Shown: positions 41,241 through 44,070, counted from the first letter of the stretch. The stretch is 64,000 nt of DNA from Hyphomicrobiales bacterium (GCA_024236395.1 JACKKO010000001.1:384921-448920); one strand, 5' to 3'. The notes: generated from the letters alone by a model not told the origin. Numbers and translations: made by a program.

Positions 41241-42506
41241 TTAGAAAGTTACTCTATTTTCTGTAAGCTTTTGGATATTTTCTAATAGGGTAGGATGCTT
41301 CTTTATTCTTTCTTCTAAGTAAGGATGTTTTGAAAATACAGAAGAATGTACTTTCTTCAGTAAACCGGTTTCTATGGTTGGGCTAACCTGCTGTATTCTA
41401 CTTTCCAGTCTTACATATCCTTGTGTACGAGAGACAAACTCTTCTTCTTCTTTAGTGACAATTACTTTATTCTTATCTTCACTTTTCTGTGGAAAGATAC
41501 TCTGAACTAACTCAGAATATACACTAAATATTTTTTCTGTAACATTTCTGGTAAGACTATACGTTTCAGATAATCGTTTCTGCATCGCTTGCTGATAAGC
41601 ACTAACATTAGCATTGCTTGGACTAAAATGTGATAGATCAATTTTTTCTATGTCGGTTCCAAAGCGTGCAAAATAAGTGATACAAAGTACTCGCAATAAA
41701 GAAATATCTGAGTTGGGGCCATCGGATAAATCAACAAGTTTGGGATCAGAGTTTGTAATATTATAGATATCTATCAAATCTCTGGGTTTGAAACCGTTAG
41801 GGTCTTTAGAGTGTTGAAAGAGTTTTCGGATAGTAAATCCACTTGGAGATACAGACTCTGGCATCATTGAACGGACGATCTTTTTTGCAAGTAAGTTACG
41901 CCAGTCATCAATCAATATGCTTGTTTTCCCATTGCTGAGATTTTCTACAGAGCGAGGTGGAAGTACAGAAATTGGTCTTTGTGAAACCAAGTCAACTTCC
42001 ATCAGGACGTCTATACCCTCAGGTGGTATAGCGACAACAGTCTTTTCTTTAAGTGCAATTTGCTTGATCTCTTCTTGTGAGAAATGTTTTTTCACAACAA
42101 ACGGCTTTGAGAAGGCTAGATCTGTGTTATCTGAATCCAGAAGTACAAAACCAAGGGATTTCATAACATCATGAAAAAATGGTCCCATAGTAAGCTGATA
42201 TTGTTTACCGAAAGTAGTTTCATCATTTAAAACGCGACTATGTTTTAGAGGTTCAATCAGTATATCAATATCACCAGCTTTTTGACCTTCTATAGGGAAA
42301 TGTATGCCTGTATCTCTGGCAATAGTTATTAGCGTTGTGCCGTATATAACTATTGCGCCGCCTTCAAAAGGCGTCTTGCGAAGGGGATCTGCGTACTCCT
42401 TCATAGAGTGCAGCAATTTACGCTTCATCTCTGTACGAAGCATCACACTCAGGGCACTTTGGTAGTCTAATGTATCAGCCTCAAGTGCTTCGTACTCATC
42501 GGGCAT
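41241..42506 (-). CDS. Hypothetical protein with AbiEii/DUF1814-like nucleotidyltransferase motifs
   Basis: 421 aa with FEGGAIVIYG ... AGDIDILIEP ... GIDVLMEVDLV ... FKPRDLIDIYNI. This resembles the GG...DxD...D and RDxxD(l/i) motifs of AbiEii-type NTases, judged from memory. It lies 19 nt downstream of the radical-SAM gene. Confidence 0.5.
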   Translation of the reverse strand: MPDEYEALEADTLDYQSALSVMLRTEMKRKLLHSMKEYADPLRKTPFEGGAIVIYGTTLITIARDTGIHFPIEGQKAGDIDILIEPLKHSRVLNDETTFGKQYQLTMGPFFHDVMKSLGFVLLDSDNTDLAFSKPFVVKKHFSQEEIKQIALKEKTVVAIPPEGIDVLMEVDLVSQRPISVLPPRSVENLSNGKTSILIDDWRNLLAKKIVRSMMPESVSPSGFTIRKLFQHSKDPNGFKPRDLIDIYNITNSDPKLVDLSDGPNSDISLLRVLCITYFARFGTDIEKIDLSHFSPSNANVSAYQQAMQKRLSETYSLTRNVTEKIFSVYSELVQSIFPQKSEDKNKVIVTKEEEEFVSRTQGYVRLESRIQQVSPTIETGLLKKVHSSVFSKHPYLEERIKKHPTLLENIQKLTENRVTF

Positions 42507-42525
42507 TATTAATTACTTCACTGAT

Positions 42526-44070
42526 CTAATGCAGGCTTTCGCGGAGTTCTTCCACGGCCGGGTGGGTAGAATTTTCAAACGCGGCAAGAAACGTTCTCAG
42601 CATATCCGCCAGCGGGTTGTAACGGTCTTTCTCCGGCTTGCGGCCATCGTAAATGATACGGTCTTCATAGCCGGTGATCCACAGTGCTTTCGGGTTGCGG
42701 CGCGCAATAATCAGACCGCCCTGGAATTTTGTATCCGGCACGCGGTGCGCTTTGAAAATGATCAGCCCTTCACCCAGTACAGCCTCTATCATGGCGCGGG
42801 CAGCGGGGGGGAGATCCACATCCAGTGCATCAAAATCCGGTTTTTCAATCACGGAAACGACTTCCAGCTTGCCAAACTCCGTAGACATGGCAAAGCGTGA
42901 TTTCTCAATGCCGGAAAGTCCTTTCTGTGAATCACAGTGGATACGCCAGGCTTTTTCCACCGGCACGGCAAAGGTCTTGAAGCCTTCAATTTCGCGGCAC
43001 TGGAAGAAGTAGTGATTGTTAATACCCAGACGTTTTAATTCAATCTGCAGGCGGCGCAGTGCTTCCGGGGAGTCATTGACGCTATCGATGATCGGTGTCT
43101 GGTTCTCCAGTGTAACATAGGCGCGGCTACGCAGACGTTGCACGGCTTTCTCCACAACAGGGATGCGGACAAAATGCCCGGTATGTTTCTTTACATAGTT
43201 TTTATCATCATCTTTCAGCAACAATTCATCAGGATGTGAGAAGTGCGTCATGAATGCCAGGTTTACATCTGGGTGCAGTGAGTGAAATAAATCCAGCATA
43301 TCGAAGAAATTATCATCGAAACGTTCTGGGAAAAAGGCCAACTCCTTGGTGCCGATACGAATCGTGCGGACGCCGGCTTCGGCAAGCCCATCCAAGTAAC
43401 TGAACAGATTATTATTGGAAAGCACCATCGGGTCACCCCCGGAAAGCAGCGCTTCGCGGATAGGGAATTTTTCTTCATTATCGGATTCCAGGATATGATG
43501 ATCCATATCTGCCAGATTATTCTTACGTGCGATCTCACGATTATGATTACGAATATAATCGGTAATTTCTTTTACGCTGGCGATGTCTTTTTCGGTTTTG
43601 CTGGTGAGAAAATCCGAACGGTAGCAATAACGGCACCAGGAACTACATACGCGTACCACGTACAATAACACTAGTTCATATTTATGCAGCAGGCCAGGCA
43701 CAGGGCTGTATTTGAGCTGATTCGAGGGGTCTTTCTCTCCGGAGAGGTCTTCGGTTTCTTCCGGGCGCGCCTTAATCAGGTTGGTGATGGCCTTACTTTT
43801 TTTAGCCAGTTCCATGTAATATTTCGTCGCGCGTGGAGGCAGGCGATCTGAAACGCCCGCGGCTTCCAGTGCTTTGAGTTCTTTTTCAGAATAAAGCTTC
43901 ACCCCACCGGCTTTCAGTGAACGTCGGTATCCCTCCAGATCATGTGAGATATAGCGATGAAAATGACTTTCCTGAATCTGCTTGCGCAAGTTATCCAGAC
44001 GGGGGGATTTGTCACGCTTGTTGCGGCGCTTACTACGCTTTGCAGCGTAAGTAGTTTTAATGTCATTCAT
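42526..44070 (-). CDS. KamA-family radical SAM protein (lysine 2,3-aminomutase-like), long form
   Basis: Contains SPVPGLLHKYELVLLYVVRVCSSWCRYCYR (a CxxxCxxC cluster), LSGGDPMVL and the later NQTPII block. At 514 aa it has extra N- and C-terminal regions. Confidence 0.85.
   Translation of the reverse strand: MNDIKTTYAAKRSKRRNKRDKSPRLDNLRKQIQESHFHRYISHDLEGYRRSLKAGGVKLYSEKELKALEAAGVSDRLPPRATKYYMELAKKSKAITNLIKARPEETEDLSGEKDPSNQLKYSPVPGLLHKYELVLLYVVRVCSSWCRYCYRSDFLTSKTEKDIASVKEITDYIRNHNREIARKNNLADMDHHILESDNEEKFPIREALLSGGDPMVLSNNNLFSYLDGLAEAGVRTIRIGTKELAFFPERFDDNFFDMLDLFHSLHPDVNLAFMTHFSHPDELLLKDDDKNYVKKHTGHFVRIPVVEKAVQRLRSRAYVTLENQTPIIDSVNDSPEALRRLQIELKRLGINNHYFFQCREIEGFKTFAVPVEKAWRIHCDSQKGLSGIEKSRFAMSTEFGKLEVVSVIEKPDFDALDVDLPPAARAMIEAVLGEGLIIFKAHRVPDTKFQGGLIIARRNPKALWITGYEDRIIYDGRKPEKDRYNPLADMLRTFLAAFENSTHPAVEELRESLH

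Follow-up and report, generated by a model that had tools for sequence, protein, structure and literature searches.

Whether a radical S-adenosylmethionine (SAM) enzyme and a nucleotidyltransferase (NTase) encoded directly behind it work as one unit is the question raised by two minus-strand genes at positions 41241-44070 of a 64,000-nucleotide (nt) stretch of DNA from a Hyphomicrobiales bacterium (GCA_024236395.1, JACKKO010000001.1:384921-448920), here called the window. The first gene encodes a 514-amino acid (aa) protein resembling the lysine 2,3-aminomutase KamA, and the second a 421-aa protein resembling the AbiEii toxins. The original prediction, made from the sequence alone, took the two for an operon that might constitute a defence or toxin module or a small-molecule pathway. 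Comparison with other genomes points elsewhere. The locus is, with good probability, a fortuitous juxtaposition of a native, stand-alone aminomutase-like gene and a probably acquired NTase gene that lacks an antitoxin.

The pair is seen in one genome only

Neighbourhoods were compared across 37 genome loci and several contig loci that carry a KamA-like gene, amounting to 42 loci besides the window; open reading frames (ORFs) were called and the neighbours clustered. A tblastn search with 48 NTase-family proteins against these 42 loci, with flanks of ~8 kb, gave a best E=0.065 and no homologue. The converse search for a KamA-like protein in the other NTase-family loci read, which comprise five distinct contexts and one 1.4-kb contig, returned nothing. 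A conserved radical-SAM plus NTase module is thus contradicted: both genes occur together in 0/42 other KamA-like loci and in none of the other NTase-family loci read. The original prediction had itself named a gene-neighbourhood check, and had held that the idea would fall if the adjacency were not conserved; the pair was found in this genome only. Because the genes adjoin in none of the other loci compared, they do not represent a conserved two-gene system. A literature search likewise yielded nothing relevant on an aminomutase-AbiEii pairing or on this KamA-like clade.

The closest ortholog locus, L003, has the same framework as the window and lacks the NTase. Its KamA-like protein is 80% identical to that of the window, and the gene is followed, as in the window, by a convergent gene for a beta-keto acid cleavage enzyme (BKACE); at the DNA level the two genes are 76% and 70% identical, respectively, to their window counterparts. 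Two small unrelated ORFs that match nothing sit where the window has the NTase gene, and no NTase remnant is present in L003.

The elements of the window locus are as follows.

42526..44070, minus strand: KamA-like radical-SAM gene (ORF call; 514 aa)
42507..42525, minus strand: 19-nt spacer between the KamA-like and NTase genes
41241..42506, minus strand: NTase-like gene (ORF call; 421 aa; GC content at third codon positions (GC3) 0.30, a compositional outlier)
44071..44500, minus strand: leader/promoter region of the KamA-like gene, 430 bp, GC 0.32, non-coding-looking
40385..41239, plus strand: BKACE gene, convergent (Pfam PF05853, E=4.3e-65)

Both ORFs lie where the original prediction had placed them, co-directional and separated by the predicted 19-nt gap, and the ~430 bp of AT-rich non-coding DNA that it described upstream of the pair corresponds to 44071-44500. 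The stop codons of the convergent NTase and BKACE genes are 1 nt apart. Base composition divides the pair. The 421-aa gene has a GC content of 0.375 and a GC3 of 0.30, while the 514-aa gene, at 0.49 and 0.54, falls on the low edge of the native range (window GC mean 0.516; GC3 of the window's housekeeping genes mostly 0.53-0.71). The GC3 gap between the two is about 0.24. The AT-rich patch that had been seen as enclosing both genes therefore covers the 421-aa gene and the leader, but not the radical-SAM gene.

Transcription and the case for a functional operon

A sigma-70-like site is predicted in the leader at 44166-44137 on the minus strand; it is the sole promoter-like site noted and lies 5′ of the KamA-like gene. 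Since the 19-nt spacer contains no terminator-like or promoter-like site, read-through from the KamA-like promoter into the NTase gene is plausible. The leader also holds a palindrome, TATGCTGCAGCGCAGCATA, at 44193-44211, within a 43-nt block shared with L003 (window 44168-44210; L003 5900-5942) that is 86% identical, compared with 76% for coding sequence. The palindrome is followed by TCTTTTTACTTGCTTTTTT, just 5′ of the promoter-like site, and a related locus, L006, carries TGCAGCGCAGCA at -113. This conserved palindrome block could be an operator or a terminator remnant. No Rfam family, riboswitch or known RNA was found in the 430-bp leader.

Such an arrangement is also what would be expected of a functional operon, in which the aminomutase makes a beta-amino acid that the NTase nucleotidylates or otherwise uses, whether in a small-molecule pathway or in a defence or toxin module. 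The shared strand, the short gap without a terminator-like site and the single promoter-like site 5′ of gene 1 all fit this proposal, and the catalytic residues of both enzymes look intact in the KamA-like residue mapping and the NTase motifs described below. It nevertheless seems very improbable, given that neither the 42 KamA-like loci nor the further NTase-family loci read contain the pair, which is found in this genome only, that the closest ortholog locus has no NTase, and that the GC3 of the two genes differs so widely. Moreover, the solved relatives of the NTase, which belong to the DUF1814 family, have tRNA as a substrate or GTP as a ligand rather than amino acids (PMC7450476, PMC3985639), and there is no PADLOC match and no plasmid or phage relative.

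The 514-aa protein is KamA-like

The first product matches KamA-family models only in NCBIfam, and all scores fall far under the curated cutoffs: TIGR00238 (KamA family), 114.5 bits against a cutoff of 199.2 (E=4.8e-33); TIGR03820 (AblA lysine 2,3-aminomutase), 104.6 against 525.4; TIGR03821 (EpmB), 98.7 against 369.3; the arginine 2,3-aminomutase model, 95.7 against 600; and TIGR04368 (glutamate 2,3-aminomutase), 94.1 against 650. Its sole solved sequence relative is Clostridium subterminale lysine 2,3-aminomutase (PDB 2a5h, E=1.5e-19). The predicted assignment to the KamA family of radical-SAM proteins is borne out by TIGR00238, albeit under its cutoff, together with 2a5h, and the motifs quoted for this product (PVPGLLHKY, CSSWCRYC and SGGDPMVL) all occur in its translation.

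For residue mapping, a 24-member alignment of the KamA-like clade, which shows very long invariant stretches, was aligned to 2a5h, whose sequence was checked residue by residue. Three positions of particular functional bearing are encoded in the window as follows.

43624..43647, minus strand: codons of CSSWCRYC, the CxxxCxxC [4Fe-4S]/SAM cluster motif (C142, C146, C149); invariant in 24/24 and equivalent to C125/C129/C132 of 2a5h
42994..42996, minus strand: codon of Arg359, at the position of the lysine-binding Asp293 of 2a5h; YxxQC[D/R] motif, Arg in 24/24
42868..42870, minus strand: codon of Lys401, a candidate residue for binding pyridoxal 5′-phosphate (PLP); invariant, two residues off Lys337 of 2a5h in an ungapped alignment

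The SAM motif S210-G-G-D213 is likewise invariant (24/24) and corresponds to S169-G-G-D172 of 2a5h; invariant equivalents also exist for R134, which binds the alpha-carboxylate in 2a5h, and for the N257/Q258 pair. The loop STEAGK that contains Lys401 occupies a place equivalent to the APGGGGK loop, with the register shifted by two residues in the ungapped alignment. The second residue that binds the lysine epsilon-amine in 2a5h, D330, is replaced by Ser396 in 24/24 members. The Zn ligands of 2a5h are not kept in the clade either: C268 is replaced by D, N or S, and C375, C377 and C380 are absent. Most of the length gained over clostridial KamA lies in a basic N-terminal tail peculiar to the lineage, in two insertions within the chain (residues ~178-203 and ~285-312) and in a differing C-terminal region without Zn cysteines. 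The enzyme had been called oversized on account of additional N- and C-terminal regions; the basic tail and the different C-terminus agree with that description, which overlooked the contribution of the two internal insertions visible in the 2a5h alignment.

These substitutions bear directly on substrate choice. The Asp pair confers lysine specificity, and glutamate 2,3-aminomutase has Lys/Asn at the same positions (SFLD paper, PMC3965090). The Arg/Ser combination of the KamA-like clade matches neither the lysine (Asp/Asp) nor the glutamate (Lys/Asn) aminomutase pattern. Because both of the Asp residues that hold the epsilon-amine are replaced, by an invariant Arg and an invariant Ser, lysine is an unlikely substrate. 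Judged from its residues, the 514-aa protein is probably a radical-SAM/PLP 2,3-aminomutase-type enzyme for a free alpha-amino acid other than lysine, and the best guess is a substrate with an acidic or otherwise non-basic side chain. An alanine 2,3-aminomutase that supplies beta-alanine was also considered, prompted by panC ~7 kb away and by panB near the gene in L006. It is disfavoured, since an aspartate decarboxylase is already present in Maricaulis and Oceanicaulis, two carriers of the clade (PMC7142369, Table A2).

Distribution and neighbours of the KamA-like clade

In a large protein collection, the 514-aa protein has more than 120 homologues of 475-540 aa at 59-80% identity. The clade occurs in Maricaulaceae and in metagenome-assembled genomes (MAGs) labelled Rickettsiales, and Marinicauda, Woodsholea and Oceanicaulis are among the named carriers; NCBI names some of the orthologs 'KamA family radical SAM protein'. 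Thirty of the loci in the neighbourhood set (L004 and L016-L044), essentially all from Maricaulaceae, have a divergent fliI-fliJ pair (flagellar export ATPase) on one side of the KamA-like gene, within ~1-2 kb, and most of these carry an OmpR-type response regulator and then a che cluster on the other side. In the MAGs labelled Rickettsiales the neighbours vary by locus and are anmK, a carbonic anhydrase gene, yaaA, an amidohydrolase gene or nnrD/acpS. A flagellar role for the enzyme was rejected: adjacency to fliI-fliJ is restricted to Maricaulaceae and absent in other lineages, and is therefore taken as family-level synteny.

The BKACE gene recurs near the KamA-like gene in three related lineages, at 40385-41239 in the window, at 8172-9029 in L003, where it adjoins, and at 658-1527 in L006, where it is 5 kb off; it is absent from all Maricaulaceae loci. 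A beta-amino acid can biochemically feed a beta-keto-acid cleavage step. The shared KamA-like/BKACE arrangement may be inherited synteny among close relatives. No ablB or lysine-fermentation partner was identified in an operon with the KamA-like gene.

The original prediction had also remarked that the customary partner of EpmB is missing here. The EpmB profile reaches 98.7 bits against its cutoff of 369.3, and the 64-kb window contains no EF-P-like sequence. Nor does an epmA- or efp-like gene appear among the recurrent neighbour clusters of the 42 KamA-like loci, some of which were annotated, although no search aimed specifically at EpmA was made. To judge by sequence conservation, the KamA-like gene is a native ortholog belonging to a strongly conserved, stand-alone alphaproteobacterial clade.

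The 421-aa protein has a DUF1814-like fold

The second protein belongs to a rare family. It has no usable match in Pfam (E<=1), NCBIfam, PADLOC or PDB sequences, either singly or as a family profile. Besides the protein itself, a word-indexed search recovered no more than a partial copy identical to it and one protein with 39% identity. When 1.84 billion protein representatives were scanned exhaustively with a HMMER profile, 46 family members emerged at E<=1e-3, to which a further word-index homology search with the family alignment added nothing. When the members were scanned individually against Pfam, NTP_transf_2 was hit weakly in 4/46 and AbiEii in 2/46 (best E=1.4e-4).

The AlphaFold model built on the 46-member alignment reached a pLDDT of 92.8 and a pTM of 0.93; confidence was attained only with this alignment, as a model from a 2-sequence alignment was unusable (pLDDT 42.6). 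In a Foldseek search of the PDB, the top three matches of the confident model were the DUF1814 structures 4o8s (JHP933), 6j7p and 6j7n (TglT/MenT3, Rv1045), with E 1.2e-3 to 4.6e-3, probability 1.00 and a target-normalised TM of 0.49-0.52. The matches ranked lower all have low probability; some are further NTases (poly(A) polymerase, OAS, Pol mu, Cid1 and cGAS), others unrelated proteins, glucokinase/hexokinase among them.

The catalytic motifs of DUF1814 were defined by Dy et al. (PMC3985639) and are recapitulated by Cai et al. (PMC7450476). Their counterparts in the window protein are encoded as follows.

42264..42341, minus strand: motifs I-II, G56-T57...K76...D79-I-D81 (hG[GS]-x21-DhD), from the family alignment
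41871..41888, minus strand: motif-III-like basic helix, A207-K-K209-I-V-R212 (consensus LAxKLxR); A in 35/41, K209 in 34/41, R212 in 38/41
41769..41789, minus strand: motif IV, +DxxD, K240-P-R242-D243-L-I-D246; K240 in 35/43, D243 in 38/43, D246 in 36/43

Within motifs I-II, G56, which stands in the stretch I54-Y-G56-T57, is present in 36/36 members, position 57 is S, T or G in 36/36 (S in 32/36), and D79 and D81 are each found in 38/38; K76 provides a basic residue shortly before the DxD. The basic helix, LAxKLxR, differs in register from the DUF1814 motif III, KLxAaxxR. R272 is invariant in the family (45/45). Many remote family matches cover the C-terminal half only (~240-420), which suggests a separable C-terminal domain.

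Because the GS...DxD and +DxxD motifs are conserved and DUF1814 structures are the top matches, the NTase call is supported at the level of the fold: on its model, the 421-aa protein is a divergent DUF1814/AbiEii-MenT-like nucleotidyltransferase of a rare, unannotated family. The AbiEii/DUF1814 likeness originally perceived in FEGGAIVIYG, AGDIDILI, IDVLMEVDLV and KPRDLIDIYN, all of which are found in the translation, thus stands for the fold and the catalytic motifs, and the AlphaFold and Foldseek check supports an NTase fold through its DUF1814 top matches; it does not extend to membership of the PF08843 profile.

Genomic contexts and origin of the NTase gene

Relatives of the NTase are solo genes amid housekeeping genes and occupy a different position in every genome. 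Their contexts are rpmH/rnpA and hisI/flhA; an M48-like gene and a H+-PPase gene; ilvD beside an ankyrin-repeat gene; dnaN; and proS...ybeY. The genes immediately 5′ of them are rpmH (divergent), ilvD and the genes for an M48-like protein, an 82-aa ORF and an unrelated 365-aa protein, none of which is shared. The ~365-aa upstream genes of L045 and L050 were considered as a conserved partner and rejected, being mutually unrelated. In every NTase-family locus (L001, L002, L045, L046, L048, L049 and L050), the GC content of the gene lies 6-13 percentage points under that of its flanks, in hosts of 40-62% GC. Taken together, sequence features point to a lineage-specific gene that was probably horizontally acquired. 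The 64-kb window contains no tRNA genes.

An alternative is that the NTase is a native housekeeping enzyme that modifies RNA or a small molecule, its AT-richness arising from amino-acid composition or low expression. That its relatives lie amid housekeeping genes without mobile-element scars, and that its catalytic motifs are under clear purifying selection, would suit such an enzyme. Against it stand the extreme sparseness (46 representatives in 1.84e9 proteins), the lack of the gene at the closest ortholog locus, a genomic position that changes from genome to genome, and a GC content that lies 6-13 points under that of the flanks across genomes of 40-62% GC; this alternative is considered unlikely.

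DUF1814 toxins are usually encoded just 3′ of highly diverse antitoxins, and some DUF1814 genes have no linked antitoxin (PMC7450476). The former habit, together with the DUF1814-like fold and motifs, invites the proposal of a type IV/VII toxin-antitoxin or abortive-infection system, akin to AbiE/MenAT, in which the NTase would be the toxin and the KamA-like protein a recruited antitoxin or regulator. This is the least probable of the explanations considered, with a minimal chance of being correct: the KamA-like gene is kept at 60-80% identity in many genomes without an adjoining NTase, the NTase relatives share no upstream partner, and antitoxin linkage is not universal among DUF1814 genes (PMC7450476). 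No AbiEi-like or wHTH/COG5340-type gene lies near the window pair, in agreement with the earlier statement that the AbiEi partner is not present, and no cognate antitoxin was found in any of the NTase-family contexts examined (the window and five others).

The suggestion of a defence module finds no favour in these contexts. PADLOC gave a noise-level pVip match for the 514-aa protein (E=0.008) and nothing for the 421-aa protein, and across the NTase family returned single marginal matches only. The window neighbours of the pair are housekeeping genes, and no plasmid or phage relatives were found.

A probable chance juxtaposition and its likely consequences

Under the preferred explanation, juxtaposition by chance, each protein would act on its own. 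The product of gene 1 would use a 5′-deoxyadenosyl radical, made by its [4Fe-4S] cluster and SAM, together with PLP to relocate the C2 amino group of a free alpha-amino acid to C3. Gene 2 would lie in a variable position, flanked by the KamA-like gene on one side and the convergent BKACE gene on the other, and would probably be expressed by read-through from the gene 1 promoter without any biochemical coupling to gene 1. Its product may catalyse Mg2+-dependent transfer of a nucleoside monophosphate (NMP) from a nucleoside triphosphate (NTP) to a hydroxyl, most plausibly the 3′ end of an RNA or tRNA as in MenT toxins, with G56, D79, D81, K209/R212 and K240/D243/D246 as the putative residues for the transfer. 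By likeness to MenT/AbiEii (PMC7450476), RNA 3′ ends are the most likely acceptors. Since no cognate antitoxin occurs in any genome examined, the NTase may either regulate itself or act on another cell, in the manner of an effector-like protein from a predatory or host-associated alphaproteobacterium. Genes for Sel1- and pentapeptide-repeat proteins are likewise present in the window, and one NTase relative adjoins an ankyrin-repeat gene, observations that are only suggestive as regards an effector role.

A number of points speak against chance juxtaposition of a native and an acquired gene, or at least temper it. Both genes run in one direction across a gap of 19 nt that holds no terminator- or promoter-like site, and to judge from this layout they are probably co-transcribed. 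The neighbour comparison in other genomes spans ~8 kb on either side. The window NTase gene is not flanked by convincing mobile-element scars, boundaries or direct repeats, and its low GC content could stem partly from amino-acid composition rather than foreign origin. The PF08843 (DUF1814) profile fails to match the window protein, and the similarity to the DUF1814 fold is of moderate strength (E about 1e-3, query-normalised TM 0.33-0.37). Finally, the NTase might have been captured into an aminomutase operon in this one lineage and act on the beta-amino-acid product, for which the chance appears slight.

A more ambitious joint proposal concerns what the two proteins are rather than whether they cooperate. 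The 421-aa protein might found a rare, antitoxin-less DUF1814/MenT branch, marked by an extra C-terminal helical domain and by AT-rich solo genes in probably host-associated alphaproteobacterial genomes, that could be an exported effector nucleotidylating the RNA of a host or competitor, while the 514-aa clade would be a 2,3-aminomutase for a substrate new to the KamA family. Taken as a whole, this proposal is tentative and rather less likely to be right than wrong.

Other features of the window

Further low-GC genes occur in the window. Tandem AT-rich ORFs (GC3 about 0.40) on the minus strand at 37377-37958 and 37991-38644 specify two paralogues, 193 and 217 aa long, which are 35% identical (E=7e-28) and have no Pfam match. 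Lying between uvrD and a pentapeptide-repeat gene, these ORFs make up a further lineage-specific island. Additional AT-rich outliers are found at 2278-3195 (minus), 33587-35032 (plus) and 47552-48427 (plus), with GC3 of 0.28, 0.42 and 0.40; two have no Pfam match and one is a Sel1-repeat gene. The genome seems to be peppered with low-GC, lineage-specific genes among housekeeping genes of 55-60% GC.

The window also encodes FlhB and FliR, of the flagellar/type III secretion (T3SS) export apparatus, and PanC, at 520-1599 (minus), 56150-56911 (plus) and 51007-51855 (plus). The ispH/lytB gene is split into two minus-strand ORFs, 48428-48958 and 49096-49383, matching positions 131-266 and 2-74 of Pfam LYTB, with ~137 out-of-frame nt between them; either a frameshift has made a pseudogene of this essential gene or the MAG was misassembled here. 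As listed, an ExoD-family ORF (39704-40552) shares ~170 nt with the beginning of the BKACE gene, so its true start is probably further downstream.

Comparison with known systems

The 514-aa protein has in common with lysine 2,3-aminomutase KamA/AblA (2a5h) and the other PLP-dependent radical-SAM aminomutases (EpmB and the glutamate and arginine 2,3-aminomutases) the CxxxCxxC and SGGD motifs, the carboxylate-binding Arg, the N/Q pair, a candidate PLP Lys and an N-terminal PVPGLxH+Y region. These shared features make it most likely that the protein performs the radical 1,2-amino-shift chemistry of these enzymes, with a free alpha-amino acid as substrate. It departs from KamA/AblA in having Arg/Ser in place of Asp293/Asp330, no Zn-site cysteines, two insertions and a basic N-terminal tail, and from glutamate 2,3-aminomutase in having Arg/Ser, not Lys/Asn. 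The presence of a BKACE gene next to the KamA-like gene in the window and L003, and 5 kb away in L006, recalls the lysine-fermentation neighbourhood, in which Kce occurs with KamA. Unlike there, the window BKACE gene is convergent rather than part of the operon, and KamDE and Kdd are not in the neighbourhood.

For the 421-aa protein, the DUF1814/AbiEii-MenT toxins (S. agalactiae AbiEii, M. tuberculosis MenT3 and H. pylori JHP933) are the best and only high-probability structural matches. Like them it has a Pol-beta-type GS...DxD whose spacer is unusually long, a basic residue shortly ahead of the DxD, a basic helix and a +DxxD motif, in the same order and at similar spacing. Several differences set it apart: the spacer between motifs I and II is 21 rather than 15 residues, motif III reads LAxKLxR instead of KLxAaxxR, and ~130 extra C-terminal residues form a helical domain in the AlphaFold model. 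In addition, no upstream antitoxin accompanies the family in any context, and its members are not on plasmids or phages.

A genuine pairing would have amounted to a new radical-SAM plus NTase system, and the comparison removes a false lead. What remains are two uncharacterised variants, each within a known superfamily. The KamA-family clade, unusually conserved and with altered specificity residues, is a target for aminomutase substrate screening, and the rare, antitoxin-less DUF1814/MenT branch bears on how such NTases stay harmless or become repurposed, for example as effectors.

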